Below are positions 1,801 through 52,635 of a stretch of 55,288 bases of DNA, piece after piece; position 1 is the stretch's first letter; every line of letters starts with the position of its first letter. Origin of the DNA: a virus (taxonomy: Duplodnaviria; Caudoviricetes); IMG/VR virus record IMGVR_UViG_3300038974_000721, positions 1 through 55,288 of that record; one strand, written 5' to 3'. The position numbers and the translations under genes were made by a program. The notes beneath the pieces were generated by a model. That model had not been told where the DNA came from. It did no database searches and saw nothing but the letters and a program-made list of their open reading frames with translations.

Positions 1801-4800
1801 TTGCCATCAAACTCACCAGCAATCACAGAAGCCCAGGTCAAACCCCAGACACTTACAGGAGTTAATAACCATGGTCTATTTTCAAATCACTACTTAGAGA
1901 CCCAGACACCAAAGACACCTGAGTGGAATGAGGATGAGAAGGCTCAGATAGTCTTCAATGAAATAAGCAAACACTATCACCAGAATCATAGGGCTGTAGC
2001 TGCCTACAAGGAGTCACAGCTGGAAGATAACTTCATTAAACCAGTCCTAAAAGCACTAGGTCATTTTTTCGGGATTCAAGGAAAGGTGGCTGATACTGCC
2101 CGTGTGCCTGATTATGCCTTCTTCTCTAATGATGATAGTCGTGATGAGGCTTATCAGCTCCAGGGCACTCAGGACTTCTATCTGAAGGCCATAGCAGTAG
2201 GTGATGCCAAAGCCTGGAATATATCCCTTGATAAGAGCCAGACCTCTGGGAAAGGGTTTTGGGATAAGCAAAACCCCAGCTACCAAATTGACACATATCT
2301 TAGAGACACTCCACCTGTATGGGGATTACTTACTAATGGCAGACTGTGGAGGCTATACCATGAGAGCACCAGTTATAAGCTGGATGTCTATTATGAGGTT
2401 GACTTGGAGAGACTTTTAAAATCAGAAGATTTGGAAGCTTTCAAATACTTTTACCTATTTTTCAGGCTTGAAGCATTCCCCAAATTCCCTGGAGATTCTT
2501 TCCTGGATAGAACTAGAGAAGGAAGTCAAGCCTATGCCAAAGAGATAGGTGAAGAGCTTCAGGATAATGTCTATAAGGCCATGCAGAAGCTGGCAGAAGG
2601 CTTCTTTGCAGACCCCTCCAATGGTTTAACCAGATCAGAAGGGGATCTGAAGGCAGTCCAAGATAACTCTATGCTCCTTCTTTACAGGCTGCTATTCATT
2701 TCTTATGCTGAAAGCAGAGGACTGCTGGATACCAGCAATAGATACTATCATGACATGAGCCTTCAGGAGATGAAGAAGGAAATTGCCACCAGGATAGATA
2801 CAGGTGGCTTCTTAGCTCCATTCTCCTATGCCTACTGGGGCAAACTGAATAATCTCTTTAACCTCATTAATGAAGGAAGTGAATCCGATAGGTGGAGAAT
2901 TGATAGGAATGTCTTTTACATACCAGCCTACAATGGTGGCCTGTTTGACCCAGCTAAAAACACCTTCCTGAGTACCAAACATGTTAGTGATCCATATCTA
3001 GCAGAGGCTCTGGACCTTCTGGCCAGGTCTGAAAAAGCTATGGTGGACTACTCTTCCCTTGACATAAAGCACCTTGGGTCTATCTATGAAGGCTTACTGG
3101 AGTATAAACTGACACCAGACCTAAACCTACTCACAGATAAGGGAGAGAGAAGGGCAACTGGCTCTTATTATACCCCTGATTATGTAGTCAAATACATAGT
3201 ACAGAATACTATCGGCATGATCCTATCTCAAAAGAAGGAGGAATGGGCTGACTCGCTGGATAGAAAAAAGTTTGCTGATCACATCTTATCCATCAAAATC
3301 CTTGATCCTGCCATGGGCAGTGGCCATTTCCTGGTGGAGGCAGTGGATTACCTAGCCAGAGCCCTGGTGGAGGCTTGGGCTACTGCTAAGAAGGAAGAAG
3401 CTAAGACCAAAGAGGTTGCAGAGCATGATATTCAGTGGGCCAGAAGAGAGGTAGTCAGAAAGTGCATCTACGGGGTAGATCTTAACCCCATGGCAGTGGA
3501 GCTGGCAAAGCTGGCCCTGTGGCTCACCACAGCAGCTGCAAATAAGCCCCTGTCATTCCTGGACCATCACCTCAGATGTGGTAATAGCCTGGTAGGAATA
3601 GATCTTGACTCCCTGGTCGTATTACCCTCCACAGGGACAGACAAAGGGTCCCTATCAGCATTCTTCACAGCCCAAAGGAAGAAGGTCATAGATGATCTTC
3701 TCAGGAAATATGGTGAAATAGATTCCAAACCGGATGATAGCTTGAAGGCTGTAAAAGAGAAGGAGAGGCAATTCAAGGCTCTTATGGAAGATGAGAGAAG
3801 CCAAAGAATTAGGGAGATAGCAAATGTCAAACTATCTGCTTACTTTGGAATTATTGTGAATGATGAGGATTATGAGTGGATGTGTAATGGCATCGACCCT
3901 GGATTATCGCCTGGATGGGGTGGTGTCAGAGATCTGGAGTGGTTTAGGAAAGCACAGCAAATAGCTCAGGAGCAGAGATTCTTCCATTGGGAGCTGGAGT
4001 TTCCTGAAGTGTTTATGCAGGGTGGTTTCAATGTCGTATTGGGCAATCCACCTTATGTTAGACAGGAGAGCCTAAGTGAGATTAAAGACTACTTGGAGAA
4101 TTATAAGGTCTACCAAGGGACTGCTGATCTATACACATACTTCATCGAAAGAGGCCTGCAGCTTTTGAAGGACGATGGCTTAATCTCCTACATAGTCTCA
4201 AATAAGTGGATGAGAGCTGGCTATGGTAAGCCATTGAGGCAACTGCTAAAAGAGCAATATGTAGAAGAAATTATAGATTTCTGTAAACTCCTTGTATTTA
4301 AGGGTGTCATGGTACATACATGTATATTAAAGGTATCGAAAAGATTGCCTGCAGCCTACATATTAGTAACAAAAGTCAAGGTCCCTCAAAAGGCATTAGA
4401 TTCTATCTCCTTATGTCATTACACAAAAGAAAATGCCTATAGTGTAAGCTATACTGGGCTGCAAGATAATAGCTGGTCACTGGCAGATGATAGAGCCCAA
4501 GATTTGCTGGATAAATTAGAAAGCAAAGGCAAGACTCTGAAGGATTACCTGGGAAGAGGTGTCTATAGAGGTGTGGTGACTGGTTTAGGCAAAGCCTTTG
4601 TTATCGATTATGAGACTAAGGAAAAGCTAATAGCTGAAGACTCAAGAAGTGCTGAAATCATAAAGCCCTATATAGGTGGCAGGGAGCTATATAGATACCA
4701 CCCTGTAGAGAGCAGAGATTATCTTATTTTTGCAAGAAGGGGCATAGATATAGAGAATTATCCTGCTATAAAGAAGCATTTGCTTCAATTTAAAGACCAA

Positions 4801-5571
4801 TTGATGCCTAAACCAAAGGATTGGCCTGAACATGAAGAGTGGAAGGGTCGTAAACCAGGCCCATACGAATGGTATGAAATTCAAGATGCTACAAGCTATT
4901 ATGCTGAATTTGAAAAACCAAAGATTATGTACCAAGTATTCCAAGGTGAGCCAACTTTTGCATTTGATACATCAGGGATGTATGCTAACAATGCTATCTG
5001 GATAATTCCAACTGCCAATAAGGTGCTTCTAGCTATACTTAACTCAAAGCTTGGTTGGTTTTTCATCTCACATTACTGCACCAAGATACAAATTGGCTAT
5101 CAGCTTATCTTCAAGTATCTAGGCAAAATTCCCCTACCTGATATGGAAAGCTTAGATCCTCGGTGTAAGATTCATCATGATCGGATAATACTCCTTGTAG
5201 AACAGATGCTCGATCTCAACAAGCAAAAGCAATCTGAGGCACATGGTTTCCTTAAATGGCTTGAAGGTGAGATAAGTGTCAAAGTCCAGGATCTCAGTGG
5301 AGCCTCTAAGCTACAGGAATACTACGGCATGGACTTCTCTGGATTCCATAACCTCCTGATCAAAAACAAAAGGAAGCTGAAGGCAGGCTATAACCCCAGA
5401 GGCAGAGGGAATAAAGAGCTTTTAGAGGAAGAATTCAATAAATCTGCAGATAAGATTAGGCAGATTAATTCCATGATAGATAAGACTGACAGGCAGATTG
5501 ATGCTCTTGTCTACGAGCTTTATGGCTTGACTGAAGAGGAAATTAAAATAGTTAAATCAGATAGCGGATAA
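1801..5571 (+). CDS. Type IIG (Eco57I-like) fused restriction endonuclease / N6-adenine methyltransferase
   Basis: N-terminal PD...DAK nuclease and LLTNGRLWRLY; YNGGLF, GSYYTP, DPAMGSGHF (motif I), GNPPY (motif IV); TaqI_C-like TRD. Confidence 0.93.
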   Translation: MPSNSPAITEAQVKPQTLTGVNNHGLFSNHYLETQTPKTPEWNEDEKAQIVFNEISKHYHQNHRAVAAYKESQLEDNFIKPVLKALGHFFGIQGKVADTARVPDYAFFSNDDSRDEAYQLQGTQDFYLKAIAVGDAKAWNISLDKSQTSGKGFWDKQNPSYQIDTYLRDTPPVWGLLTNGRLWRLYHESTSYKLDVYYEVDLERLLKSEDLEAFKYFYLFFRLEAFPKFPGDSFLDRTREGSQAYAKEIGEELQDNVYKAMQKLAEGFFADPSNGLTRSEGDLKAVQDNSMLLLYRLLFISYAESRGLLDTSNRYYHDMSLQEMKKEIATRIDTGGFLAPFSYAYWGKLNNLFNLINEGSESDRWRIDRNVFYIPAYNGGLFDPAKNTFLSTKHVSDPYLAEALDLLARSEKAMVDYSSLDIKHLGSIYEGLLEYKLTPDLNLLTDKGERRATGSYYTPDYVVKYIVQNTIGMILSQKKEEWADSLDRKKFADHILSIKILDPAMGSGHFLVEAVDYLARALVEAWATAKKEEAKTKEVAEHDIQWARREVVRKCIYGVDLNPMAVELAKLALWLTTAAANKPLSFLDHHLRCGNSLVGIDLDSLVVLPSTGTDKGSLSAFFTAQRKKVIDDLLRKYGEIDSKPDDSLKAVKEKERQFKALMEDERSQRIREIANVKLSAYFGIIVNDEDYEWMCNGIDPGLSPGWGGVRDLEWFRKAQQIAQEQRFFHWELEFPEVFMQGGFNVVLGNPPYVRQESLSEIKDYLENYKVYQGTADLYTYFIERGLQLLKDDGLISYIVSNKWMRAGYGKPLRQLLKEQYVEEIIDFCKLLVFKGVMVHTCILKVSKRLPAAYILVTKVKVPQKALDSISLCHYTKENAYSVSYTGLQDNSWSLADDRAQDLLDKLESKGKTLKDYLGRGVYRGVVTGLGKAFVIDYETKEKLIAEDSRSAEIIKPYIGGRELYRYHPVESRDYLIFARRGIDIENYPAIKKHLLQFKDQLMPKPKDWPEHEEWKGRKPGPYEWYEIQDATSYYAEFEKPKIMYQVFQGEPTFAFDTSGMYANNAIWIIPTANKVLLAILNSKLGWFFISHYCTKIQIGYQLIFKYLGKIPLPDMESLDPRCKIHHDRIILLVEQMLDLNKQKQSEAHGFLKWLEGEISVKVQDLSGASKLQEYYGMDFSGFHNLLIKNKRKLKAGYNPRGRGNKELLEEEFNKSADKIRQINSMIDKTDRQIDALVYELYGLTEEEIKIVKSDSG

Positions 5572-6443: not shown

Positions 6444-6874
6444 GCCCTGGAGCTGGAGAAGAGCTTAAGCACCTAATGGCCGGCGTGAAATCCAAGACAT
6501 CCAAACCTGGAGGCTTAGACTCTAAAGATGAAGGCTTAAACCTAAATGATAAAGCCTTAAACTCTAAGGATAAAACCTTAGACCTTAAGCCTAAAGGTAA
6601 TGAGCCTAAATCCTTAGACTTAAAGGATAAAGGATTAGGCTCTAAGGCTAAAGGCTTAAACCTAAAGGCTTTAGGCGAAGCTGTGGAAGGAGCTAACAGC
6701 AATAGGCAATCTATAGCGATCTGGAGCCCTAAGATCTCTGCTGTAATGTGGTACCTGAAGAAGACAACTCCAGAGTTCTCTATCTCAGAAGAAGCCAGGG
6801 CGATCTTAGAGGAAGGCCTGGAGAAAAAGTATCCTGAGCTTTTCCAGAAGGTAAAGGAAGGACTGAAGAAATGA
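6440..6874 (+). CDS. Putative ParA adaptor / centromere-binding protein with repeat linker and C-terminal RHH-like domain
   Basis: ATGA overlap with parA; 7-aa K/L repeats followed by a strand-helix-helix pattern (SIAIWSPKISAVMWYLKK...SISEEARAILEEGL). Confidence 0.65.
   Translation: MSPGAGEELKHLMAGVKSKTSKPGGLDSKDEGLNLNDKALNSKDKTLDLKPKGNEPKSLDLKDKGLGSKAKGLNLKALGEAVEGANSNRQSIAIWSPKISAVMWYLKKTTPEFSISEEARAILEEGLEKKYPELFQKVKEGLKK
6506..6674. repeat. Second heptamer array (~23 units) inside the adaptor ORF
   Basis: GCTTAGA CTCTAAA GATGAAG GCTTAAA CCTAAAT GATAAAG CCTTAAA ... GCTTAAA CCTAAAG GCTTTAG; shares exact GCTTAAACCTAAAGG and CCTAAAGGCTTTAG with the upstream array. Confidence 0.8.
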
Positions 6875-6948
6875 TTCTTTGCCAACTATTTATTAAGCCC
6901 TATGAGAAGAGATCAAGAAAAAGGACTCTGGAAATGAGGTAAAATGAT

Positions 6949-7389
6949 ATGGTTCAAAATATAACTAATGCTGTAGCTACTAACGCAACAGAGACCACTT
7001 TGACTATTAATCATGATATAAATTCAGCTGCGATAATTGGTTCAATTGCAATTATAATTACATTATTAGGTCTTTTATACAGATATAGTCAGCAATTAGG
7101 TGAATTGAAGGGAGTTAAAGAGTTAATCGACACTAAACTTAAATTTATTGACGAAAAATATAATACATCCGAAAAGATTCAAGCCGTAGAATTAAGAGTT
7201 CAAGCCGTAGAATTAAAAGTTCAAGATAAAATCAGCAAAGATGAAGTAAATACGCATATTTACGAGATTCATAACAATTTATTCACAATGGGCGAAGAAA
7301 TAAAAGCATTGAAAAAACAAAATGATGATCTGAAAAAAGAATTAGAACGGCATAAAAAATCACATCCAAGGCAAAAGGATCTGTTTTAA
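6949..7389 (+). CDS. Single-pass membrane coiled-coil protein
   Basis: GAGGT RBS; hydrophobic AAIIGSIAIIITLLGLLY; AT-rich; 21-bp tandem duplication (QAVELRV/QAVELKV). Confidence 0.7.
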   Translation: MVQNITNAVATNATETTLTINHDINSAAIIGSIAIIITLLGLLYRYSQQLGELKGVKELIDTKLKFIDEKYNTSEKIQAVELRVQAVELKVQDKISKDEVNTHIYEIHNNLFTMGEEIKALKKQNDDLKKELERHKKSHPRQKDLF

Positions 7390-7425
7390 TATACTAACAA
7401 CGAAAGAGGCCGAAGCTAAACACTG

Positions 7426-7653
7426 ATGGCAGTTCTGGAAGTGAGAGACCCATCTCAGAGCCCATATGACAAAGTCCTATGGGCACTGGCTACACGCGGA
7501 AGGATGAAGAGGAAGGATCTTAGGCGATATACCAAACTGAAGCTATCCGAGCTGGAGCCTATCCTTGAGGAGCTGGCAAAGGAAGGCCGTATAAGGATCT
7601 CAGGCGATATGGTAAGCTTGGGTCCAGCTCATGCTTCCAGGCAGAACTCTTGA
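7426..7653 (+). CDS. Small winged-helix protein
   Basis: RKDLRRYTKLKLSELEPILEELAKEGRIRI fits a wHTH pattern. Confidence 0.55.
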   Translation: MAVLEVRDPSQSPYDKVLWALATRGRMKRKDLRRYTKLKLSELEPILEELAKEGRIRISGDMVSLGPAHASRQNS

Positions 7654-7907
7654 GGCCATAGGCCATCTTCAGAGCCTATAGAGCCAATATCCTCAGCTTC
7701 AAAGCGGCACCGGATCATCTCATCGACCTCTGATAACCTGATCCTGAAGACCTCAGCCAGGATCTCTTTGGCGGCTTCCAGCTCCATAGCCTTCATACCC
7801 TGGTATACGGTTCTCTGCTGTGGCCTGATTAGCTGCTCAAGGACTCCTGCCATGATGAGCAAATAGGCCGGATGAGAATAAGTACTTTGGCCCGAAATCA
7901 ATATCAA
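7629..7907 (-). CDS. Small hypothetical protein (start uncertain)
   Basis: MELEAAKEILAEVF...EVDEMIR motif recalled from Methanothrix hypotheticals; converges on the wHTH gene. Confidence 0.5.
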   Translation of the reverse strand: MILISGQSTYSHPAYLLIMAGVLEQLIRPQQRTVYQGMKAMELEAAKEILAEVFRIRLSEVDEMIRCRFEAEDIGSIGSEDGLWPQEFCLEA

Positions 7908-8090
7908 TCGACCATTTTTTCATGAGAGGAATAAGCGATTAAGATACAAAGGGTGGATGAAGACATGAAATTGAATAAATTCTTCTTTGCCTTCTTTGGG
8001 AGCTGCTCTACCCCACTACCAAAAAGATTTTCTTCAGATAGTCTAATCTTAGAAAAGGAGGAGATTAAGACGAAGCTAGTGCGTTTAGCG

Positions 8091-42141: not shown

Positions 42142-45100
42142 TTAGCTATCCAGTGATTCCTTTATTATCTTCTCAATGTAATCCTTATCTTCCTGAAATA
42201 CTATTCCCGGACAATTCCTCACGGATCTCGAAACAATGTCGCGACTTGATACTGAGACAATGAATGAGTCAAAAGCCAATCTCATACCTTTATTCTTTTC
42301 TGAAATATTTTTTTCTAACTCCTTGATTCGTTGGTGGAGTCCAATCTTTTCATTATAGAGATCCAAATAGCTTAAGACCAAGCCCTTTGGATCTACAAAG
42401 ATGATATTTTGTCTCTCTCCAGTCTTTACCCAAATAATGAAATCGGGATAGAAATAGGACGTCTCAAAGAATCCTATTCCTCTTCTGGGAAGATTCCTTA
42501 GCAAAAAGACCTTTTTATCCCTAAAGACATCTGAATTCAATTCAAGATATCTTTTAAGGTCCCATACGAATCGCTTTTCTCCCTCATTCAATCCCTGTGG
42601 CTGAATGCTTAATTGGCTTGAATTGATATTTTGTTTCGCCAATAGCGGCTGATATAAATGCCTGTCAAATGATACATTGGTAATGCATCCAGGAGCACCT
42701 TTCCACACTACTTCCCTTGTGCCCGACCTAGCTATGGCTTGCACCTCGGAGAGAGCAAATGAATCAGTCTCCTTAACATTTACGAGGTACCCTCCAAAAT
42801 CAAGGTTACCATGATTGCCATCTAAAGGCTTTACATCCAAATTATCCTGAATCCAATTGTTCTTATTGCGGTCATAGTAGGCTTGGATAAACTTCTTCAA
42901 TATCATCTCCACGATTTCCGCCAGACGGCCTAGGTCCTCGAACCTTTGTGGGATGATATAGGTCTCAGGGCAATGCAGCTCATAGAGCTGTCTTTCGACT
43001 ATCTCCTTCAGCCTTTCCTTATCGAATATGAGATTACTCCAGCCCTTGTGCCGCCTGTAGTCGAGCAAAGCAAAATAGATCTTCTGCCAATCCAATATCT
43101 GAAGGTACTTATCATCAATTGTCCGAGGAGGATTGTCGGATGCATCGACCTCTAAGGCTTCATGCCCGCTTGCTATGATTTCCACCTTAGGAGTAAGGTC
43201 CACCTTTGCCTTTATCCCATTATCTGCGACTAGATGGAAGAATTGCTCCTTTTTGAAACGCTCCTTATCGATATAAGTTACCAGCAATCCTTCCTTCAAA
43301 TAATCCTGGTTGACCTTGATAGGAACGGGTATTTCGATGAAAGTGTCTATGGGACCTACTTCCTCTTCGAGGTATTCCCGGAATTGATCCATGTAATTAG
43401 CCTTAATGCCGAAAATACTTAGAGTCTCAAGGATTCCGAGGTGTTTTGGCGAGGCAATCTCCAGGGCACTGCTTCGCTTTAGCGAGAAATCTTTGCCCCT
43501 CAGTCTCACTCCTCTGCCAAAAAGCTGGATAATCTGTGAGCCTTCCTTCTTTCCGATATTCAAGAGGCCCATATTGGATACTCTCCAGGAATTCCAGCCT
43601 TCAATAAACTTCTTAGCACCAATGAGGATATTTGTCTTTGATTTTGCATTATTAATGGAGTCAAAAAGAGAGTTGCTGAGTTCATCCGGCTCAGCAGGGA
43701 TGCCCGGCTCTTTATTATTTACAAGCTTGAGAAACTCAGCCTTATCTCCTATGTTTATGACTCCGAAAAATTCCGAGGCACCAGCCCGAAGAGCTATCTC
43801 TCCATCTGCCTTCTTGATGTTCACAAGATGCAATGGAGCGGAAATTGGCACATTGAAGACCTTGATGAGCAATCCTTTGTAGATCTCTTCCGGCGTAAGG
43901 CCCTTTTCTCGGATGTACTTGAGCTTGGTATCTGGATAGGTTGGGGAATAGATGTCTCTGTCCTTATCATCTATCAATCCCGATTTGCCATCTAGGATTC
44001 TCCGAATGCTGTTGATTGCCCAATTATCCTCATTCTTAAGGGCCAGGGAGAGGAAGCGAACTATAGTGAGGATATCGGATTGCTCCTTTTGGCCCTTTAC
44101 TTTACTTCCCACGAAGATCCATAAGGGCTTCTCGATATTGTATTCCTTGATTAGCTCGTTATTCTCTTCGAATACTAAAATCTGCTCATAGAAGGACACC
44201 AGGTTTGCCAGCATTAGTATGTCCTGGCTGGTATCGGTGACGTGCTCCTTGAGGTTCAGGATGCGATAATCCTTGCCGTAGCCATCTTTGTAGAAATACT
44301 TGTAGGAGTAATCGAAGAGAATCGCTTTTCCATATTCCTCTACAAGAGCCGATGAGTCCTTGGTGGCCGCTGCCACAGCCTGTCCAAAGGTGGCACTGTA
44401 TTCAAATGCGAATCCCTCATCCGCAAGCAATTTGCGGAAATCCCTCCATTTCTCTCCACCGCTCCCTTTATGGCCCTCATCTACAAAGAGAAGGTTCTTC
44501 TTTCCGAAGTATTCCACTGCTACAGTTACTCCCTGACCTTTTTTCTCCTCAGTGAACTTATGAATATCGATTACCTGCACCTGATTTGGCTCCACCATGC
44601 TTGAGAAATAACCCTGGCCAGAGTTGTCGAAAAGGGCACATGGTATCCCGCTCTGTTGCATCTCGTTGACATGCTGGCTGGATAGGCCCTGATTAGGAGT
44701 TATGAGAAGGATGTTATCGAGCTTAATCTGATTTGGCCCCTGGTTATATCGCATGAATTGCAGGTAGTTGATATGCAGCAGCAGCGTCTTTCCGCTGCCT
44801 GTGGCCATCCAGAAAGCAAGCTTCGTTAGGTCATCCCTTGCAAAGAAGATATCATTGTTATCCAAACCTATCGCATAATCATCAAGTTCATTGAGAAGGC
44901 TTATCGGATTTTCGAAGTACTTATCAAGGAATATCTCTGCATAAAGGACCGCTAAATATTGGAAATACTTGAGAACAACTGGATTCTCCCGCCCCTGGTT
45001 GATATGCTCGACATATTCCTTAATGTTATTATCGTATTGCTCCAGCTTATCGATTGATAAAGCAAGCCCCTTTTGGGCTATTAGGCTATAGAAGACATAG

Positions 45101-45270
45101 CTATGGCCTTCCTCATCAAAGCCCTCTTTGGAATCATTAAGGAGTTGCTGGAGATCTTTGAAGCCATTTCCGCCAAAGAGCCGGTTGAAAAAGGCATTAA
45201 GGATCAGCTTATCGTTTAAGGGATTCACCTTTCTTTGCTTTGAGGTCCGAGATGAGCGTCTCTTAGGCAT
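42142..45270 (-). CDS. res: Type III restriction enzyme Res subunit
   Basis: MATGSGKT, VDEGH, YSATF, EGW, Q..GRGVRL, C-terminal YPDF...FVDPKG nuclease. Confidence 0.92.
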   Translation of the reverse strand: MPKRRSSRTSKQRKVNPLNDKLILNAFFNRLFGGNGFKDLQQLLNDSKEGFDEEGHSYVFYSLIAQKGLALSIDKLEQYDNNIKEYVEHINQGRENPVVLKYFQYLAVLYAEIFLDKYFENPISLLNELDDYAIGLDNNDIFFARDDLTKLAFWMATGSGKTLLLHINYLQFMRYNQGPNQIKLDNILLITPNQGLSSQHVNEMQQSGIPCALFDNSGQGYFSSMVEPNQVQVIDIHKFTEEKKGQGVTVAVEYFGKKNLLFVDEGHKGSGGEKWRDFRKLLADEGFAFEYSATFGQAVAAATKDSSALVEEYGKAILFDYSYKYFYKDGYGKDYRILNLKEHVTDTSQDILMLANLVSFYEQILVFEENNELIKEYNIEKPLWIFVGSKVKGQKEQSDILTIVRFLSLALKNEDNWAINSIRRILDGKSGLIDDKDRDIYSPTYPDTKLKYIREKGLTPEEIYKGLLIKVFNVPISAPLHLVNIKKADGEIALRAGASEFFGVINIGDKAEFLKLVNNKEPGIPAEPDELSNSLFDSINNAKSKTNILIGAKKFIEGWNSWRVSNMGLLNIGKKEGSQIIQLFGRGVRLRGKDFSLKRSSALEIASPKHLGILETLSIFGIKANYMDQFREYLEEEVGPIDTFIEIPVPIKVNQDYLKEGLLVTYIDKERFKKEQFFHLVADNGIKAKVDLTPKVEIIASGHEALEVDASDNPPRTIDDKYLQILDWQKIYFALLDYRRHKGWSNLIFDKERLKEIVERQLYELHCPETYIIPQRFEDLGRLAEIVEMILKKFIQAYYDRNKNNWIQDNLDVKPLDGNHGNLDFGGYLVNVKETDSFALSEVQAIARSGTREVVWKGAPGCITNVSFDRHLYQPLLAKQNINSSQLSIQPQGLNEGEKRFVWDLKRYLELNSDVFRDKKVFLLRNLPRRGIGFFETSYFYPDFIIWVKTGERQNIIFVDPKGLVLSYLDLYNEKIGLHQRIKELEKNISEKNKGMRLAFDSFIVSVSSRDIVSRSVRNCPGIVFQEDKDYIEKIIKESLDS

Positions 45271-45273
45271 GAC

Positions 45274-48200
45274 CTATGCCCCCATAAGCCGTTTGAATTC
45301 GGGCTCTATTGGGATGACTCCTTCGACAAAGCAGTCACTATTGACATAGACCTTATTCGCCTTGAACTCTTTTAAGATACGGTCTTCGATGAATTCCTTA
45401 TCAGCTTTAAGATCCAAGCCATCCGTTGAACGCCAGATGATGGTTACAGTATCCTCGGCCTTCTTGCCGTTGACAACCCTATAATAGCCTCCGTTATTAT
45501 GGAAGGCTTTGATTCTAATTATATGCAGCCCGAGGAGATAATTAAAAGTTTCCACAAGATCAACTTTCTCATCACGCATCTCGTTGTTATGAGTAACTTT
45601 GAGAGTGTAATCAAATGGATGATTGAGCTTATCAACATTCAAGCGACAGGGGCTATCCCTAGTCTCAAATTCGAGCATGTAACGGAGGAAGTAGCTGTCC
45701 AGTTCTTCAAGTGTCCTCTGCACTGTACCTGAATCGAGGATCTCAATATTATTAAGGGTATCTTCGTATTGTTCTAGATACATATATTTGAAAATATGAG
45801 ATGATCCTTCTTCATCTTGCGGTGTTCCGTCTCTCCAATTCTTTGCATATATCGCTTTTTCGATACGGGTTTTAACTATTTTATCAAAATAATCTTCAAT
45901 TTCTATTAGTATATATTTTCTATTAAGTTTATCTTTGGAATTTAGATTGATAACAGCCTGACCAGTTGATCCAGAACCCGCAAAAAAGTCAATGACAAAA
46001 TCTTCTCTTACTTGATCGGTCATAGAAACAATTCTCTCTATAAGTTTGAGAGGCTTCTTGCCATTATCGAATTCTACATCTCCTTCATGCCTTAAATTAT
46101 TTGTATCTATATCATCCCATAAATTAGAAATGGGCTCTACTAATGCTTTTTCACCATTGATTACTTGGATATTGTTGCTTAAAAAGTAAATTTGTCTTCC
46201 ACGATAAAGGTAAATCGTATCTCTATTTTCTCTATTTAGAGCAATTATGCTATCAGACTGTTTAGATTGTTGAATCAATGGCCGTATCCAAGGAGATGGT
46301 TTCTGCAAGGTTTTTGTTTCAAATACCCTATCTGCATTTTCAACTGCAAATTTTTCGCAATTTCTTAAAATAATTGATTCAGCAAATTCACCATATTTTT
46401 CCTTGGCATATCTTGCACCCTCTCTTGTGTTCGATCCATTAAATCCCATATTCTGAAGAACTTGAAGCTTAATCGGTTTGAATTTCCACTCTTTGGGATC
46501 ACACGATTTATCCTCTACAAAGCGGGAAAAATGAGCTAAATCTACCTCTTTTTTTATGACATATTGTTGATTATAAGCTAACTTATTTCTATTATTGGCA
46601 AAAAGTATAATTTGGTCAGTAATATCCACTGGCCCTAAGTTAATGGTCCTAAAGCTCGATACAGTTGAACATTTTGATGTTATTGTAACCAAGTATGAAT
46701 CAGGGCCAAATACACGCTCTATTAGTCCACGAAGTCTCCAATTCTCGATATCATTTACTTGTATTGCACCGAGTCCTGATTCCGCCAACATAGACTGAGC
46801 TATGTTTAAACGATTCTCTAATAAACTAAGCCAACTTGAGTGCCTGTAATTATCTTTATAAATAAAATCATCACTGCCTGTGTTATATGGTGGATCGATA
46901 TAGATACATTTTATTTTCCCTTCATATTTGTCCTTTATAAGGTTTAGTGCCTGCCAATTTTCGCTTTTTATCATCAATCCGTTGATCTCTTGATCAAAAT
47001 TATCAAAACTGGCTAGTAATTTATCTTTAAAACTATTATCGAAAAATTTAGTATCTAGCACCAGGTATGGATGCGTTTTAAGGTACTGGATATCGATGAA
47101 TTGCATGTCGTTATTTGCCAATGTCCTATGCTCAAATCCATCTAACTTGAATAGATCTATCCACTCTTTTATCTGGAGTTTGTTTCTTGTTATCTCTTCA
47201 TATAACTTCTCTGGTATCCGGTCTAAGGTCAAGCAGTATTCGGATTTAATGACAAATTTTCTCTTTTTAAATAGTTTTAATTGAAAATCCTCAATTTGGG
47301 CCAGAAAATTAATGATTTTTAGGCCTATTTTTTTCATAACCTTGATTTGGCCGATATATTCTTCAATATTCAATTCCTTTTCAGTACCCAGTTCGTCTAT
47401 TATTATTACTTCATTTTTTATGTAAAAGTCAAACTCGCCGGAAAGAAAGCTCTTGAGATCTTTGTGAATGAAGTAGTCCGTGGTATTCCTTTTGGCATAT
47501 CTCAGCAAATGCTTTTCAAGCAATGTCTTTTCATCATCTGTCTTTTGAAGAGCATTTCTCAATCCATCTACGTCGATTTTGAATGATATCTGTTGTCCAG
47601 CTTCGTCAAGAAGTACTCTTTGTACATCCCTTGTTCCGTATTTTCCCGTTTCCTCATCTTTAAGTGCTCGATATTCAAAAAAGATGGTTAATTCTTTATA
47701 TTCATTATCGTAAGTTATGGAATCCTTCCCTCCTTTGAGCAGGAAGAACCTTTTCCCTGATTTGCCATTATTTTGGTCCGTTTCGATTTCTTTGAGCATA
47801 AAATAAACCTTGTACTCCCCGACTTTAAATGAATAATTTTTAAAATACTCTCCAGTTTTTATATAGTATTGGTCCTTATTGGCCCAATGCAGCAATACTT
47901 CTTCCCCATTATAGGGCACTGCATACTTATTTTTCCTGGAGTAACGCCTCATGGAGATGAAGTCTCCGTCATCATAATAGCGAGAGAAGAATTGGTATAT
48001 GTGGCTGAAGATCTCTGCTTTGTGCTGATCGGCCATCTCATTATTCTTAAGATCCTCTTTCTTATTGTAGAACTCTTTGGCAATAGGAGAGCTTCGGTAC
48101 ATCTCCTTCAAATCGCCGGAAGGCAAGAGGGCATCCTCTCCCAATGTAGATGCTATTCTTTTTCTTATTTCATCTAGCTCCTCATCGATTTTTCCCTTGC

Positions 48201-48384
48201 TCTTTGCTGAATACTTCTCGAATTCAATATCTACTGCCTTGATAAGATCTTCCTCAATGAACCTCTCGATCTCATCCCGCTTGTAGTTCATTATGCGATA
48301 GATGCCAAAATCCAAATCTGCCGAATCGAATTGGAATAGCTTCCTCAAGAGCCCTTGAAGCTCACGCCGGTAATCTTTAGTCAT
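45274..48384 (-). CDS. mod: Type III RM methyltransferase Mod subunit (long form)
   Basis: IYIDPPYNTG and DFFAGSGSTG in beta-class order; LDFGIYRI N-terminus. Confidence 0.93.
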   Translation of the reverse strand: MTKDYRRELQGLLRKLFQFDSADLDFGIYRIMNYKRDEIERFIEEDLIKAVDIEFEKYSAKSKGKIDEELDEIRKRIASTLGEDALLPSGDLKEMYRSSPIAKEFYNKKEDLKNNEMADQHKAEIFSHIYQFFSRYYDDGDFISMRRYSRKNKYAVPYNGEEVLLHWANKDQYYIKTGEYFKNYSFKVGEYKVYFMLKEIETDQNNGKSGKRFFLLKGGKDSITYDNEYKELTIFFEYRALKDEETGKYGTRDVQRVLLDEAGQQISFKIDVDGLRNALQKTDDEKTLLEKHLLRYAKRNTTDYFIHKDLKSFLSGEFDFYIKNEVIIIDELGTEKELNIEEYIGQIKVMKKIGLKIINFLAQIEDFQLKLFKKRKFVIKSEYCLTLDRIPEKLYEEITRNKLQIKEWIDLFKLDGFEHRTLANNDMQFIDIQYLKTHPYLVLDTKFFDNSFKDKLLASFDNFDQEINGLMIKSENWQALNLIKDKYEGKIKCIYIDPPYNTGSDDFIYKDNYRHSSWLSLLENRLNIAQSMLAESGLGAIQVNDIENWRLRGLIERVFGPDSYLVTITSKCSTVSSFRTINLGPVDITDQIILFANNRNKLAYNQQYVIKKEVDLAHFSRFVEDKSCDPKEWKFKPIKLQVLQNMGFNGSNTREGARYAKEKYGEFAESIILRNCEKFAVENADRVFETKTLQKPSPWIRPLIQQSKQSDSIIALNRENRDTIYLYRGRQIYFLSNNIQVINGEKALVEPISNLWDDIDTNNLRHEGDVEFDNGKKPLKLIERIVSMTDQVREDFVIDFFAGSGSTGQAVINLNSKDKLNRKYILIEIEDYFDKIVKTRIEKAIYAKNWRDGTPQDEEGSSHIFKYMYLEQYEDTLNNIEILDSGTVQRTLEELDSYFLRYMLEFETRDSPCRLNVDKLNHPFDYTLKVTHNNEMRDEKVDLVETFNYLLGLHIIRIKAFHNNGGYYRVVNGKKAEDTVTIIWRSTDGLDLKADKEFIEDRILKEFKANKVYVNSDCFVEGVIPIEPEFKRLMGA

Positions 48385-48387
48385 CTC

Positions 48388-51123
48388 TTAGTTCCCCTTC
48401 CATTTGCAGATAAGCCCATAATCGCAGCCCTTGCAGTGACTTCCCGAGCATGCCTTGAAGTCTCTATTCAAGATTCCATCTACATGCCTTTCAGCGTTCC
48501 TCTGTGCCGCTTCCATATGGCCTTCCTTGACCTCAACGTCCCGAAGAGTGGCATTATCCAAGTATGCTATCGATCCTTTAGCTACGGACTCACCAATCAT
48601 GTTTAAACCCAACGCATATACTTGAACCTGCATAGAAGAGTCTTCAAAGGTCGTTGCCTGGTCCGTGGTCTTGTAATCCCGGATCTCTATGGCATTGCCT
48701 TCATGGAGTATGACATCAACCTTGCCGGCTATAGTGGCCCTCTGGAGAGGAAATTCTATCCTAGTCTCGACCTCTTTGATTCTTCTCATATCCTCTTCAC
48801 GTTTTTTCACAAATTCCATCAATTTCCTTCTCGCTGCCTGCTTTACCTGTCTGCTCCTGGCTTCATCGGCGAAGGGCATGAAAAAATTATCATCAACAGC
48901 AGTGGCAATTGCACTGATTGGGCTATATCCCTGGTTCTTGATGAGTTCGGCAGCGGTCCTGAGACAGAAATGAAGGGTATTGCCATAGCCGAGATAGTCA
49001 GATAAGCCGGGCTGATATCCCCATATTTGCCTCATCCTATAGGAATGAGGGCAGGTTTTATAGGTGATTATCTCGCCTGCTGAAAAAGTTTGAATGTCTT
49101 CGATATCTCCGCTTTTGGTAAGAGGATAATCTGGCAGAGCATCCTGCATTGATAGCTCATTAAAGTGTAAGTCAGATAGGCTAGATAGGAATTCGCTTTC
49201 AGATACCGCTTTCCTGATCCTTCTAAATGAGCTTAATACGAGAACATCTTTGGCCCGCGTGGCAGCTACATAGAATAGCCTTCTTTCGTCTTCTATGCTT
49301 CCTTCATATTTTGCGGCATCAAAGAGGGTCCTGCTTATCTGCCATGTTTTATTAGGATTTCTTGACTTGCTTGAAGGGAATCTTGTAGATATAAGCCCGG
49401 GCATGAATACAACCGGCCATTCAAGGCCTTTTGCTTGATGCATTGTCACAAGCTGGATGGCATTGATAGCCCTCACATCGTCTCCCTGTTGCTCTTCATA
49501 GGCATTAGTGGCATAGTTGTGGATATACCAGAAGAGGCCCTTCATATCTTGTTGCCAACTTCTCCTCTTCTTGCCGCCCAGGCGGATTGCCGTTTCATAG
49601 TCGGTGAGCAGGGAATTAAATCGCCCCAAGTTGGCCATCATCACAGCCTGGGTAGGTTCATCAGGATCGAGATTCAAATAACCAAAAGTCCTTAGGAGTT
49701 CCTGGTATACTTCAGTAAAATTCTCAAATTCGCCGGAAAGGGTTCTATCTTTCCATTTGATTATTTGATTTGCTATGTCGGCTGAAAGAGCATAGGGAAC
49801 AACGGACTGCCATGCTTCAAGGCCCTCAGGAAGCAACTCATTCCAGGAAAAGCTATCCCTTGAATTCCAGGGATTCTCTTGCCACCAACTTCCCTCATGG
49901 AGCCAGCAAAATAGCATACCTACTGCTTTGGCTTCTTCTCGTCTGAAGAGACCAACTTTCCCGCCTACGATAAAAGGAATGCCACGCCTCCGGAATTCAT
50001 CGATAAATGGCGGCGCAGAAGTTGTTACACTTCTCATAAGTATTCCGATATCGGAATAGCTGCAATTGCCGCTGCTAACATATCTTTCGACTTGATCGGC
50101 AATCCACCTGGCTTCATCGTTTGCGGTATCGGTTGATATGTGGGCTACTACGCCTTTATCCTTTCTGGTAGGTGCTATGTGGTCATATTTTTGAGCCTCA
50201 AAGCTATCGGAAAAGGTGTTTGCCAGATCTAAGATAGACTTGGCACTTCTCCTATTCTCAGTTATGGAAATCGTTTCAGTATCTGGATATTTCCGGGAAA
50301 AATCCTCGAAGCACTTCTCATCCGAGCCTCTCCACTTGTAAATCGTTTGGCGGGGATCTCCGACAATGAATAAGCCCGCGTTAGTACCTATTAGCTGGAT
50401 GAGCTTTTCTTGAGCCCTATTGATATCCTGATATTCATCAACCAGCAGATACTTTGCATGCTTGAGCTTATCAGGCTTCTCTTGGAGATTCGTTACCGCT
50501 AGCTTAATCATCCTATCAAAAGTAAGTCGCTTATAGGAGTCCAGGATCTCTTCATACTTTCTAAGCCGCCTATAGAATGCGGGTTCCTTCCTTTCGAGAA
50601 TGGCCTCATCAAGAAGCTCTCCATTAACCACATTTGCCGTTTCTAGGAACGACTCACAATTTCGGGAATAGCTTCCATCATTTCCAAGGCCAAGCTCCCA
50701 ACCCACTCTCATTAAGAAAGCCATCTCTTGGTTCGCATCAAAAGCATCATAGCTTCCATATCCGAAATGGTCAACGAGAATCCTGTGGCAATAGGCATGA
50801 ATGGTCCCTATAAAGAGGTCTCCGATTTGATAGCATATATCATCCCTGCCAAGGCCCCTTAGTCGATCATAGACCCTGCTTTTCATGCTTTGGGCAGCTT
50901 TATCAGTAAAAGTGAATGCCACAATGGCCGATGGATCGACTTCTTCGTGGATCAGGTTATAGACTATTCTTCGGGTAAGAGTCTCGGTTTTTCCTGCACC
51001 TGCCCCGGCAATGATTCTTATATGAGGTCTATCTGATAGAACGGCCCTTTTTTGTGTATCAGATAGTGGTTTTGGATGTTTTAGGATTTGCTCCAGCTTT
51101 TGATTCGTCTCATTAGTTTCCAT
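48388..51123 (-). CDS. UvrD/PcrA-like SF1 helicase fused to a PD-(D/E)XK nuclease
   Basis: AGAGAGKT, VDEYQD, VGDPRQTIY.WRG, TMHQAKGLE, EERRLFYVA-like motif; C-terminal GKVD...DYKT with four Cys (Fe-S staple-like). Confidence 0.92.
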   Translation of the reverse strand: METNETNQKLEQILKHPKPLSDTQKRAVLSDRPHIRIIAGAGAGKTETLTRRIVYNLIHEEVDPSAIVAFTFTDKAAQSMKSRVYDRLRGLGRDDICYQIGDLFIGTIHAYCHRILVDHFGYGSYDAFDANQEMAFLMRVGWELGLGNDGSYSRNCESFLETANVVNGELLDEAILERKEPAFYRRLRKYEEILDSYKRLTFDRMIKLAVTNLQEKPDKLKHAKYLLVDEYQDINRAQEKLIQLIGTNAGLFIVGDPRQTIYKWRGSDEKCFEDFSRKYPDTETISITENRRSAKSILDLANTFSDSFEAQKYDHIAPTRKDKGVVAHISTDTANDEARWIADQVERYVSSGNCSYSDIGILMRSVTTSAPPFIDEFRRRGIPFIVGGKVGLFRREEAKAVGMLFCWLHEGSWWQENPWNSRDSFSWNELLPEGLEAWQSVVPYALSADIANQIIKWKDRTLSGEFENFTEVYQELLRTFGYLNLDPDEPTQAVMMANLGRFNSLLTDYETAIRLGGKKRRSWQQDMKGLFWYIHNYATNAYEEQQGDDVRAINAIQLVTMHQAKGLEWPVVFMPGLISTRFPSSKSRNPNKTWQISRTLFDAAKYEGSIEDERRLFYVAATRAKDVLVLSSFRRIRKAVSESEFLSSLSDLHFNELSMQDALPDYPLTKSGDIEDIQTFSAGEIITYKTCPHSYRMRQIWGYQPGLSDYLGYGNTLHFCLRTAAELIKNQGYSPISAIATAVDDNFFMPFADEARSRQVKQAARRKLMEFVKKREEDMRRIKEVETRIEFPLQRATIAGKVDVILHEGNAIEIRDYKTTDQATTFEDSSMQVQVYALGLNMIGESVAKGSIAYLDNATLRDVEVKEGHMEAAQRNAERHVDGILNRDFKACSGSHCKGCDYGLICKWKGN

Positions 51124-51342
51124 CGGCCTCCCAGCGGGTAGAAGATCATAAGTTACTATAGAAGTACCTTTTGGAGCCTTGAAATTAAGATGAGGATATG
51201 ATTCAGATAAAGAGATGCATATGAATTACTTTGAAGTGACCTATGTTTCAATTGGGCCACTTCTTTGCAGCCATCAGACTTAATTTGCAGGAACTCAGGT
51301 TGTATCCCATTTTCGTAGGCAGGGGAGTAGTCACCGGTAAAT

Positions 51343-51721
51343 CACCAAGGAGGCCCGCCTCCTTTAGGGGGTGGGAGGAATTGGGTACACTTCCCAGTTT
51401 ACTTTCGCGGTGCTCTGCATAACTATTTAACATGTCAAACCATCTCCTGTATGTACTTGGGCATCTTAGGCACCCTCGCGGTAAACCGCTCGATGCTGAT
51501 CCTGTACGGCTCTGCCAGACTCTTGCCCGAAAGGGAACGGCTGAAACACGATTTGAGGTCGTCTCTGGCAGATCTGAGGCCAATGTTCCTGCAAGACAGG
51601 AACCTCTGCGATTCGTCGGCGCATGTAGGCTGGCCTGGAGGTCCGGGTAGATCTCTGATTCTGAAACAGATCTGCTCAGGGCTGCTGAAAGCCCCTCTCC
51701 TTAAGGGGAGGGGTAGCTTAC
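51343..51721 (+). mobile_element. Non-autonomous IS200/IS605-type element (PATE/MITE-like); ends approximate
   Basis: Subterminal hairpins CCCGCCTCC-TTTA-GGGGGTGGG (51354-51375) and GCCCCTCTCC-TTAA-GGGGAGGGGT (51691-51714) followed by AGCTTAC; no tnpA/tnpB ORF. Confidence 0.75.
51453..51721 (+). ncRNA. Predicted structured RNA, omegaRNA/reRNA-like
   Basis: TATA-like TATTTAAC at 51424; nested stems with GAAA/UUCG loops and G:U pairs that favour the + strand. Confidence 0.5.
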
Positions 51722-52635
51722 GCTATGCCTAGTTTTGGTATATGGCTCAGGTAACTTCTCCTCAGCTCTTCTCTATCAATGTGATCATAGATATCGATTG
51801 CCTCTTTGCGAACATCGCCCCTCAACTCCTGGATGAATTCACGGGGCATCCCAGATCTGCGAAGGTGGGTGGTGAACCAATGACGGCAGCAATGGGCGCT
51901 AAAATGTTCTTCCAGCTTGGAGGATTTGGGGTTATGGACACCAAGGGCAATGCCCGCCTTACTGATCATATAGATAACTGTTTTTTCCGTTGCGGGGCGG
52001 CCAATCGTTGATATCCATAATGCCTTGATTCCATTTCTGTTCCGTTCTTCACGAACTGCTAGCCAACGAGACAGTATAGTGGCTGCCTCCTGGTCGAAAA
52101 AGACTACTCTATTGGAACGTTTCGCGGTTTGCTTCAGGGTGATACTCCAATCATTCCAATTGATATCATCGACTTCCATGCTCAATAACTCATTCCTCCT
52201 TACGCCCGTCTTGAAGAGGACGGTCATCATGGCTTTGTCCCGGATATCAACCATATAGTCGATCATATTCGCTGCCTGTTTTATGCTGATCAATTGCCTG
52301 TCTCGCTTCTCGTTGTCTTTCTTGTAGCTATGCAAATACCGCGAGCGTACCTCTTTCACCGGATTCTTATCAGTCAATTCCTCGAAAATGGCCCAATCAT
52401 AGAAATTGCTTATACTAGCGAGGCTGAACGCGATTGATCCGGTATAATGCCCCTTTTTTCGGGCCTCTTCTATAAAATCTCGGATATCTATTTTATTGAC
52501 TGCAAATATGTCCTTGCCATCCAGGAACCTCATAAAATTGGCTATGCGATACCTATAATTCCGGATAGTCCTTGGGCTCATCCCGCGAATCTCTGCATCA
52601 GTGGCCCAAGCCTCCAGCAGGGTCACTTTAACCAT
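51718..52635 (-). CDS. Tyrosine recombinase / integrase (XerA-like)
   Basis: TGVRRNEL (R), K, HCCRH (HxxR), LRGD, IYDH (Y); N-terminal SAM-like domain. Confidence 0.93.
   Translation of the reverse strand: MVKVTLLEAWATDAEIRGMSPRTIRNYRYRIANFMRFLDGKDIFAVNKIDIRDFIEEARKKGHYTGSIAFSLASISNFYDWAIFEELTDKNPVKEVRSRYLHSYKKDNEKRDRQLISIKQAANMIDYMVDIRDKAMMTVLFKTGVRRNELLSMEVDDINWNDWSITLKQTAKRSNRVVFFDQEAATILSRWLAVREERNRNGIKALWISTIGRPATEKTVIYMISKAGIALGVHNPKSSKLEEHFSAHCCRHWFTTHLRRSGMPREFIQELRGDVRKEAIDIYDHIDREELRRSYLSHIPKLGIA

Follow-up and report, generated by a model that had tools for sequence, protein, structure and literature searches.

With reference to the published accounts, two descriptions come closest to the locus examined here: palindrome-associated transposable elements (PATEs) of Geobacillus, which according to the relevant section of one report often encode omegaRNAs for use in trans (PMC10055086), and mobilised stand-alone omegaRNAs that work in trans, as described in part of another (PMC10691335). 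In this study, a virus record of IMG/VR (IMGVR_UViG_3300038974_000721) was analysed over its whole length, a linear stretch of 55,288 b with a completeness estimate of 57%, which is called the window throughout. It holds, at 51335-51721 on the + strand and against the 3' end of a viral tyrosine integrase gene, a protein-less IS200/IS605-type element of 387 bp. In our judgement, this element is likely to be a non-autonomous PATE of the IS200/IS605 family with a TnpB omegaRNA, making RNA for a TnpB supplied in trans and with a role in homing. We observed that the element is mobile, that it has a target motif, that its RNA is structured, and that this RNA is homologous to TnpB 3' ends, including a pseudoknot next to the guide.

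The limits of 51335 and 51721 were adopted because the copies share the same end, their flanks diverge at the next base, and TCAC or TTAC precedes the full copies; the original prediction, made from this DNA alone, had given 51343-51745, which differs only slightly, though the flank already begins at 51722. The target motif TCAC, a predicted transposon-adjacent motif (TAM), occupies 51331-51334 (+ strand) and adjoins the left end, and the sequence diverges upstream of it. Near the left end stands the hairpin CCCGCCTCC-TTTA-GGGGGTGGG (51354-51375, + strand), followed by AGGAATTGGG, and near the right end the hairpin CCCCTCTCC-TTAA-GGGGAGGGG (51692-51713, + strand), with GAAAGCC directly before it and its tetraloop at -21 to -18, counted back from the right end. 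The last bases of the element are the tail TAGCTTAC (51714-51721, + strand), of which 51715-51721 make up the 3' strand of the pseudoknot. The two hairpins are related, and their shared motif occurs at these two sites alone in the 55,288 b (four strand-matches against 0.17 expected; 0 of 100 shuffles yield four). The ends are thus near-terminal palindromes and not inverted repeats of each other, and no target duplication was seen. Neither tnpA nor tnpB was found between the hairpins: the three internal open reading frames (ORFs) belong to no Pfam family, and tblastn of three TnpBs against the element gave a best E of 0.64. The motif count, Pfam and tblastn together bear out the earlier claim of two IS200/IS605-type hairpins with neither gene between them.

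Copies were found by exact-word scans of public collections and then by BLAST, with further viral contigs added later. The element was present in 41 of the 84 loci collected by then, its copies being 77-98% identical, and about 50 copies were found altogether, all of them protein-less. Across 48 right ends with 27 distinct right flanks, every right end stops at the equivalent of 51721; all copies terminate in ...GGGGTAGCTTAC and diverge from the next base into unrelated flanks. TCAC precedes the element at 20 of the 22 distinct left flanks and TTAC at the other 2. At least three element types are told apart by their left-end hairpin (with variants in types B and C), GGAGGA following the hairpin in each, and the types are only 77-84% identical to one another; among the copies the right-end hairpin shows five compensatory pairs. 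The element has moved many times. One copy (L017 7002-7387, minus strand) splits an integrase gene into an N-terminal part (ORF 6756-7259) and a C-terminal part (7389-8036); joining its flanks restores the integrase frame, and the copy is antisense to the gene, like the copy in the window. In L021, a relative of L016, TCAC and 34 nt identical to the right flank of the element in L016 occur with no element there, in a rearranged region. The element appears confined to virus contigs. A scan of 185,579 species genomes with one 21-mer returned one contig, which is virus-like and binned in a Syntrophaceae metagenome-assembled genome, and the element had no blastn match among 50,697 phage records or 72,556 plasmids. 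Degenerate pattern scans of viral contigs for distant copies produced 43 extra loci, 0 of which match the RNA model.

At the site in the window, the integrase gene (51718-52635, minus strand) receives its stop codon from the element, as the original prediction had stated: the TAA at 51718-51720, read on the minus strand, lies inside the tail, within the last eight bases of the element. The reconstructed empty site of the window, TCAC/GCTATG (the slash marking the insertion point), reads ATA GCG TGA on the minus strand, so the integrase protein would be unaltered by the insertion and only its stop codon exchanged, TGA for TAA.

Some irregular copies were noticed besides. The related viruses L015 and L019 have the element and its left flank in common, and L019 carries 69 extra nt (2613-2681) right after the right end, ending in TCAC, that are absent in L015 (reverse strand, next to 8253). 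The difference resembles a deletion of the transposase type, from the right-end cut site to the next TCAC, which would alter the predicted guide. Three contig pairs (window/L059, L042/L065 and L054/L063) have identical left flanks of up to 1,500 nt and unrelated right flanks across the element. Either the assembly has joined contigs across the repeat, or the viruses have truly recombined where the element lies; we did not read these pairs as guide switching.

The structured RNA occupies 51455-51721 (+ strand, 267 nt) and has 14 helices, as established from an alignment of the last 275 nt of 24 distinct copies (A1) and a covariance model built from it (R1). The consensus of A1 contains 82 pairs, with 99.4% of cells paired, and 26 of the pairs show compensatory change, against 1-5 after the partners were slid by 1-3 columns; the observed values were reached by 0 of 500 shuffles. 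Covariation among copies, which the original prediction had proposed as a check, is thus present. Much of the covariation reflects the split between element types, and its cells do not count as separate events; even so, whole helices have been rebuilt, TCTGCCAGA/TCTGGCAGA being replaced by CTGGTTGGA/TTCAACAAG, and in L067 one hairpin is swapped for a different one, while conservation and structure reach 51721 in all copies. Nine pairs are mostly G:U or U:G, with few A/C cells; the structure therefore lies on the + strand, as had been argued from G:U pairs before, and this strand also folds better (-152.5 kcal/mol, against -129 for the minus strand). Folded as a single sequence, 51453-51721 does not stand out (z = -1.56), and the case for structure is made by covariation. 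Two domains are specific to the element: helices 5-8 at 51508-51575 (+ strand), with six compensatory pairs in helix 5, and helices 10-11 at 51585-51628 (+ strand), which the alignment places inside the loop of helix 9. The stems named in the original prediction fared unequally. TCTGCCAGA/TCTGGCAGA (helix 5) and GTTCCTG/CAGGAAC (helix 10) are upheld by compensatory changes, and CCC-GAAA-GGG is kept and never varies, but the other three have compensatory change at 0 of 15 pairs: the long-range stem CTTGGGCA/TGCTCAGG clashes with helices 1 and 12 (four and three compensatory pairs, respectively), the GCGG/CCGC stem is broken in 6 of the 24 sequences, and the middle pair of the CGA/TCG stem is broken in 16 of 24.

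Rfam gave no family at gathering score in the window, and at E<=10 only three chance-level matches in 51200-51800. An omegaRNA of the IscB/IsrB kind was also considered; it would have its guide at the 5' end and be read from the flank into the element, on the other strand, and this disagrees with the + strand structure and with the lack of a HEARO-like Rfam match. As regards incomplete forms of the RNA, L091 (12974-13232) and L092 (5774-6032) have lost the apical part of helix 12, a long hairpin, and kept the rest, so this part seems dispensable. L020 (5507-5639) and L018 (6872-7004, minus strand) contain just the last 133 nt of the element, with no left end, immediately after the stop codon of a virus gene; these pieces retain the pseudoknot partner, helix 12 and the right-end hairpin, and have about the size of a minimal omegaRNA scaffold.

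The pairing might be thought to serve the DNA alone, by structuring the single-stranded intermediate of transposition, since IS200/IS605 elements move as single-stranded DNA of this very strand and TnpA reads their end hairpins, as set out in the part of PMC10055086 on their movement. The end hairpins are, however, the only parts known to be needed; the fourteen helices, the frequent G:U pairs and the kinship with the part of tnpB genes that holds the omegaRNA point to RNA instead, and the interior is found at high depth in RNA libraries. We therefore hold structure at the DNA level only to be very improbable.

The origin of this RNA is disclosed by its relatives. R1 was searched against 79 viral loci with TnpB relatives (the best 80 of 475, minus L144, which is the locus of the L016 record itself), and it matched over its full length at 7 of the 79, on the tnpB strand, with scores of 33.8 (L178), 28.4 (L183), 27.8 (L177), 18.8 (L172), 15.4 (L216), 13.8 (L173) and 12.0 bits (L148); at three further TnpB loci the hairpin alone was matched. 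Six of the seven matches start 139-231 nt before the TnpB stop and end 5-34 nt past it; they overlap the stop region of tnpB, the place of omegaRNAs. As a control, R1 was run on 43 unrelated viral loci (280,528 b) and gave no match at E<=1. What the element and the TnpB-linked RNAs share are helices 1, 9 and 12, the GGAGG block, CAGGGCUNCUGAAAGCC, the tail and the hairpin of the right end, and the common parts, with the pseudoknot, are the most conserved parts of the element RNA. In an alignment fitted to the model, helices 1, 9 and 12 and the right-end hairpin gain extra compensatory pairs against the TnpB-linked rows, while helices 5-8, gapped in all five of those rows, and helices 10-11 belong to the element only. 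A faint, co-linear trace is left at the protein level as well: in one element frame, PGGPGR..SGLLKAP aligns with the PGGSEL..SGLLKTP of the L183 TnpB C-terminus (BLASTP E 0.087 when taken alone), and a second frame reads LGH...DAD where TnpB has CGHCG...DAD. Judged from these alignments, the element RNA is an omegaRNA homologue, the surviving 3' end of a tnpB gene that has been lost. Comparison with tnpB 3' ends had been recommended in the original prediction, and the homology found, pseudoknot included, makes its stand-alone guide-RNA cassette the right reading and rejects the new class of non-coding RNA that it had offered beside this. The objection that the interior is simply decayed tnpB, which the original prediction named as a refutation, is half correct, in that the interior does derive from the tnpB 3' end, but it has been kept as RNA and is not simply decaying.

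In the solved complex of the ISDra2 omegaRNA, bases -5 to -3 pair with -103 to -105, according to the structural section of that report (PMC10097598), and a guide-adjacent pseudoknot is predicted in the element too, between GTAGGCT at 51625-51631 (-97 to -91, + strand) and 51715-51721. The tail AGCUUAC has GUAGGCU as its sole 7-nt partner in the last 260 nt, and this partner sits within the most conserved block of the family. The two strands are 100% paired in 27 of 27 distinct copies, with no compensatory change inside the element family; the sole change, G to A in L097, strengthens the pseudoknot and breaks an alternative pair predicted by RNAalifold. L183, L172 and L173 possess a tail-pairing block at the homologous site, 12 nt upstream of GGAGG or CGUGG, made of other strands (AUAAAC/GUUUAU in L183, GUAACG/CGUUAC in L172 and L173), and three positions are altered on both sides between families. 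Five of six pseudoknot positions pair by eye in L178, and L177 has no partner at the homologous site. A search of all columns against all others for covarying pseudoknots was dominated by the division into element types, and no use was made of it.

A similar arrangement was noticed in TnpB elements of another group. At -71 to -66 from their right ends, L016 and L099 have GUCAAU and GUCAGC, each able to pair with their common tail GUUGAC, and their TnpB proteins are just 32% identical. From these two sequences, a guide-adjacent pseudoknot seems general in the L016/L099 TnpB group.

We also considered whether the 93-aa frame at 51451-51732 (+ strand) encodes a small protein. It is open in most copies, and ORF callers predicted it in 15 database clusters. 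Nevertheless, the variable columns are spread over the codon positions as 35/91, 36/90 and 32/90 in the 24 copies, with no excess at the third position, and the frame is therefore not coding; at least 4 of the 24 copies have a stop in their best frame. A phmmer search with the frame against 1.84 billion proteins returned 17 matches, of which 15 are ORF calls on other copies, with ends that vary by flank, and two are long repetitive proteins; it belongs to no protein family, and the trace left in the protein is too short for a TnpB to appear among the 17. A second frame has hardly any stops either, and the open frames are thus explained by base composition and by ancestry in the tnpB 3' end, the RNA being the old end of that gene. 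A protein product is on these grounds barely credible.

With respect to expression, the host has to be considered first. The large terminase of the window virus has as its nearest annotated relative BK063673.1 (40% identity), which also encodes a TnpB 94% identical to the TnpB of related contigs and whose stated host is Methanosarcinales; this indirect evidence suggests an archaeal host. The TATA-like box at 51424 and the structured region about 25 nt later, both pointed out in the original prediction, were found again: TATTTAAC at 51424-51431 (+ strand), a predicted archaeal promoter, stands 24 nt before the start of conservation at 51455. An A/T-rich octamer occurs in every copy type, 21-26 nt before ACTTGG, the first conserved bases, and no sigma-70-like site was found on the + strand of the element. 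L016 has a similar box before its TnpB gene, just inside the left end; the element promoter is therefore probably the old tnpB promoter, which a deletion would have moved next to the omegaRNA.

Contigs of four RNA libraries from three studies were available. In two random-primed libraries, unitigs over 51494-51623 reach a depth of 1,329-2,268, against 2.9-4.0 for window-identical unitigs over 51288-51490 and 3.6-4.3 on the integrase side of the same libraries. In the other two, depth is about 400-1,850 across a large part of 51441-51719 and falls to 85-125 at 51596-51626, the flank being at about 14. Libraries X10 and X12 have no contig over 51627-51684, from which no conclusion is drawn. Some contigs cross the right end into other flanks, their strand and ends being unreadable. 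The copy number of the repeat explains part of the depth, yet hardly a several-hundred-fold step inside one element. A contig of library X7 (depth 493, with a loose end before 51645) shares about the last 77 nt, from helix 12 onward, and is A/T-rich and unrelated upstream. It may come from a shorter member of the family or from some other carrier of the element's 3' module.

A promoter-like box of its own, two extra domains and very deep unitigs over the 5' and middle part would also suit an RNA that serves no nuclease and does another job, whether antisense or regulatory, for example against the integrase 3' end, or of benefit to the virus; read-through at the window site would indeed be antisense to the integrase. 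However, an integrase gene is found in or at just 2 of the 27 distinct right flanks (a third copy lies 1.35 kb from one), and the right flanks have nothing in common, which means that there is no common antisense target. The conservation is, moreover, strongest in the very parts that TnpB-linked RNAs share, pseudoknot included. We judge such a job to be improbable, and the repression of the integrase that the original prediction suggested is without evidence.

On the omegaRNA reading, the next question concerns the proteins that would act on the element. The virus contig L016, which also carries the element, has a TnpB-only insertion sequence of 1,218 bp (1900-3117), 1.5 kb from the protein-less copy. 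Its left end is 80% identical to that of the window element over 50 nt, and its right end consists of GCAAGCC, a hairpin and GTAGTTGAC. The layout GMAAGCC-hairpin-GTAG..AC is common to the protein-less element and to three TnpB elements (L016, G004/L086 and G008/L099), whose proteins are TnpB by Pfam. At L021 1700-1715 lies a clean empty site of the L016 TnpB element, CTTTCAC/ATTGTG, with insertion 3' of TTCAC and no duplication, and the TnpB element therefore uses the same target motif as the protein-less one. From these shared ends, the element and the three TnpB elements (L016, L086 and L099) probably use the same transposase. TnpB genes were found in 3 of 10 element-bearing virus records, both complete ones among them, and a Y1_Tnp match in 0 of 5.

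The use of the element RNA by a TnpB in trans is what we infer from the whole, and several points weigh against it. The window's record, 57% complete, contains no TnpB; no TnpB of the clade that matches R1 was found in any element-bearing locus; and the TnpB genes of three element-bearing viruses match R1, searched with no filters, at the end hairpins only (<=8.3 bits). No near-identical tnpB-linked version is among the roughly 50 copies, and no close effector-linked copy was found in 2.9 million viral contigs, 241 million metagenome records and 185,579 genomes, by exact words that reach close relatives only. Where R1 matches TnpB 3' ends, the scores are modest, at 12-34 bits, and the E-values of the model rough; the two inserted domains are foreign to the TnpB-linked homologues, and compatibility with any nuclease is putative. 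The TATA reading presupposes an archaeal host, for which the evidence is indirect and comes from a single annotated relative. The RNA-library contigs give no strand, 5' end, read-through or level, and expression of the RNA is a hint only. Lastly, self-targeting may be possible by sequence, because the right-end tail ends in TTAC, which is the target at 2 of the 22 sites.

These points raise the question of whether the element is an orphan relic, that is, a mobile deletion derivative spread by TnpA alone, whose omegaRNA is transcribed but idle for want of a compatible TnpB. The failure to find a cognate TnpB in any element-bearing contig would fit this, as would the match of the TnpB genes present to R1 at the hairpins only and the protein-less state of all copies. 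Against it stands the maintenance of the structure by compensatory changes between types that are 77-84% identical, the element-specific domains included, which is not expected of a functionless RNA. An idle relic is accordingly unlikely in our estimation.

Returning to the preferred reading of a PATE whose omegaRNA serves a TnpB in trans, the following course of events is proposed. The element would descend from a TnpB-only insertion sequence that lost almost the whole of tnpB, its left end and TATA-like promoter becoming fused to the last ~270 nt, the part encoding the omegaRNA. A Y1 transposase (TnpA), acting in trans, would excise the top strand at TCAC/ and ...TTAC/ (slashes marking the cuts) and paste it 3' of another TCAC; in the window, the single-stranded DNA would have entered 3' of the TCAC that coincides precisely with the stop codon of the viral tyrosine integrase. 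From its own promoter, the element would make an RNA that starts near 51455, has its scaffold up to 51721, and continues about 16-20 nt into the flank as the guide. In the window the predicted guide is 51722-51741 (+ strand), antisense to the last integrase codons, by analogy with the flank-derived guides in the part of PMC10691335 that describes them. The host or a co-resident element would supply in trans a TnpB of matching clade, which would bind this RNA and cut TCAC plus flank in element-free genomes, upon which repair would copy the element in, the known homing role. TCAC with the 34 nt of the L016 right flank in L021 is a candidate natural target. The promoter, the read-through into the flank, the binding of TnpB and the cleavage are the putative steps of this course.

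An extension of this reading, which we put forward tentatively and regard as doubtful at present, is that the element might be a self-promoted guide satellite of archaeal viruses: an omegaRNA with no nuclease gene, which has gained two RNA domains, uses the old tnpB promoter and hijacks the TnpB of other insertion sequences or of the host. Between viruses that infect the same cell it might then be a gene drive, in which every insertion would direct cuts to rival genomes without the element, in the present case to the 3' end of the integrase gene. This is suggested because nearly all copies are in virus contigs, the one exact match among the 185,579 species genomes being in a virus-like contig.

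In any case, the element offers a natural example of a guide RNA that has outlived its nuclease gene and spread to at least 27 sites, in carriers that are apparently viruses of methanogenic archaea. Should a partner TnpB be found, it would provide a guide scaffold that is compact, acts in trans and has TCAC as its defined target motif; it would also allow the idea that mobile elements parasitise one another through guide RNAs to be tested, and would be a possible route of virus-virus competition. For annotation, it implies that intergenic "orphan" ORFs of ~90 aa beside such hairpins are RNA genes.

Turning to the surroundings of the element, the 74 nt before it (51261-51334, + strand) are a left flank common to L055 and L059; the similarity begins at 51261, and all differ further left. 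This piece terminates in GGGAGTAGTCAC, a 12-mer of single occurrence in the window and identical to the right-end tail of the TnpB element of G004/L031, known from related viruses and present in L086, and to the tail in L084. By this identity, an older element probably left the piece behind, and its tail, ending in TCAC, would have been the target of the present one in a tandem insertion. The gene left of the element (48388-51123, minus strand) encodes a UvrD-type helicase with a PD-(D/E)XK nuclease domain (911 aa). Genes resembling restriction-modification or helicase genes were noticed in the window, three of them consecutive and immediately left of the element: a ResIII/SNF2 helicase of 1,042 aa (42142-45270), an N6_N4 methylase of 1,036 aa (45274-48384) and the UvrD-PD-(D/E)XK protein. 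An Eco57I/MmeI-type methylase fusion of 1,256 aa lies at 1801-5571.

In comparison with known systems, the element is a further example of the known stand-alone omegaRNA/PATE kind and not a new kind of system. The features that define PATEs in the descriptive part of the report on Haloquadratum walsbyi (PMC3119063) are found in it, and it is therefore classed as a PATE: palindromes lie near both ends, inverted terminal repeats and target duplication are lacking, the length is too short for a transposase, the distance from element start to palindrome is longer at the 5' side (19 nt) than at the 3' side (8 nt), TnpB-only insertion sequences have related ends, and insertion takes place beside other elements. 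It differs in that the PATEs described there reside in a cellular chromosome and are just fused ends, whereas the present element is found in virus contigs and has a conserved RNA gene as its interior. With the stand-alone omegaRNAs, as far as the corresponding sections of PMC10691335 and PMC10055086 describe them, it shares the mobilised state, the absence of effector and transposase, a guide taken from the right flank and a nuclease acting in trans. Those omegaRNAs, in contrast, occur with effector loci in the same genome and have demonstrated trans activity, whereas for the element neither an effector-linked near-identical copy nor a cognate TnpB was found in our searches, and its RNA has two added domains and a promoter-like box directly before it. 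The IS1341-type elements L016, L086 (G004) and L099 (G008) have in common with it a left-end hairpin followed by GGAGGA and the right-end layout, and L016 also a TTCAC target, but they possess an intact TnpB and their 3' ends match R1 no further than the hairpin. Relative to the ISDra2 omegaRNA, as seen by cryo-EM in the structural section of PMC10097598, sequence similarity and an Rfam match are lacking, and the element RNA is distinct in its 267 nt, its extra domains and its freedom from an overlapping gene. The architecture next to the guide is nevertheless the same: the scaffold stops at the transposon end, a tetraloop hairpin stands about 20 nt before the guide (at -21 to -18 in the element and -20 to -17 in ISDra2), and the tail is engaged in a guide-adjacent pseudoknot with a block about 100 nt upstream, at -97 to -91 in the element and -105 to -103 in ISDra2.

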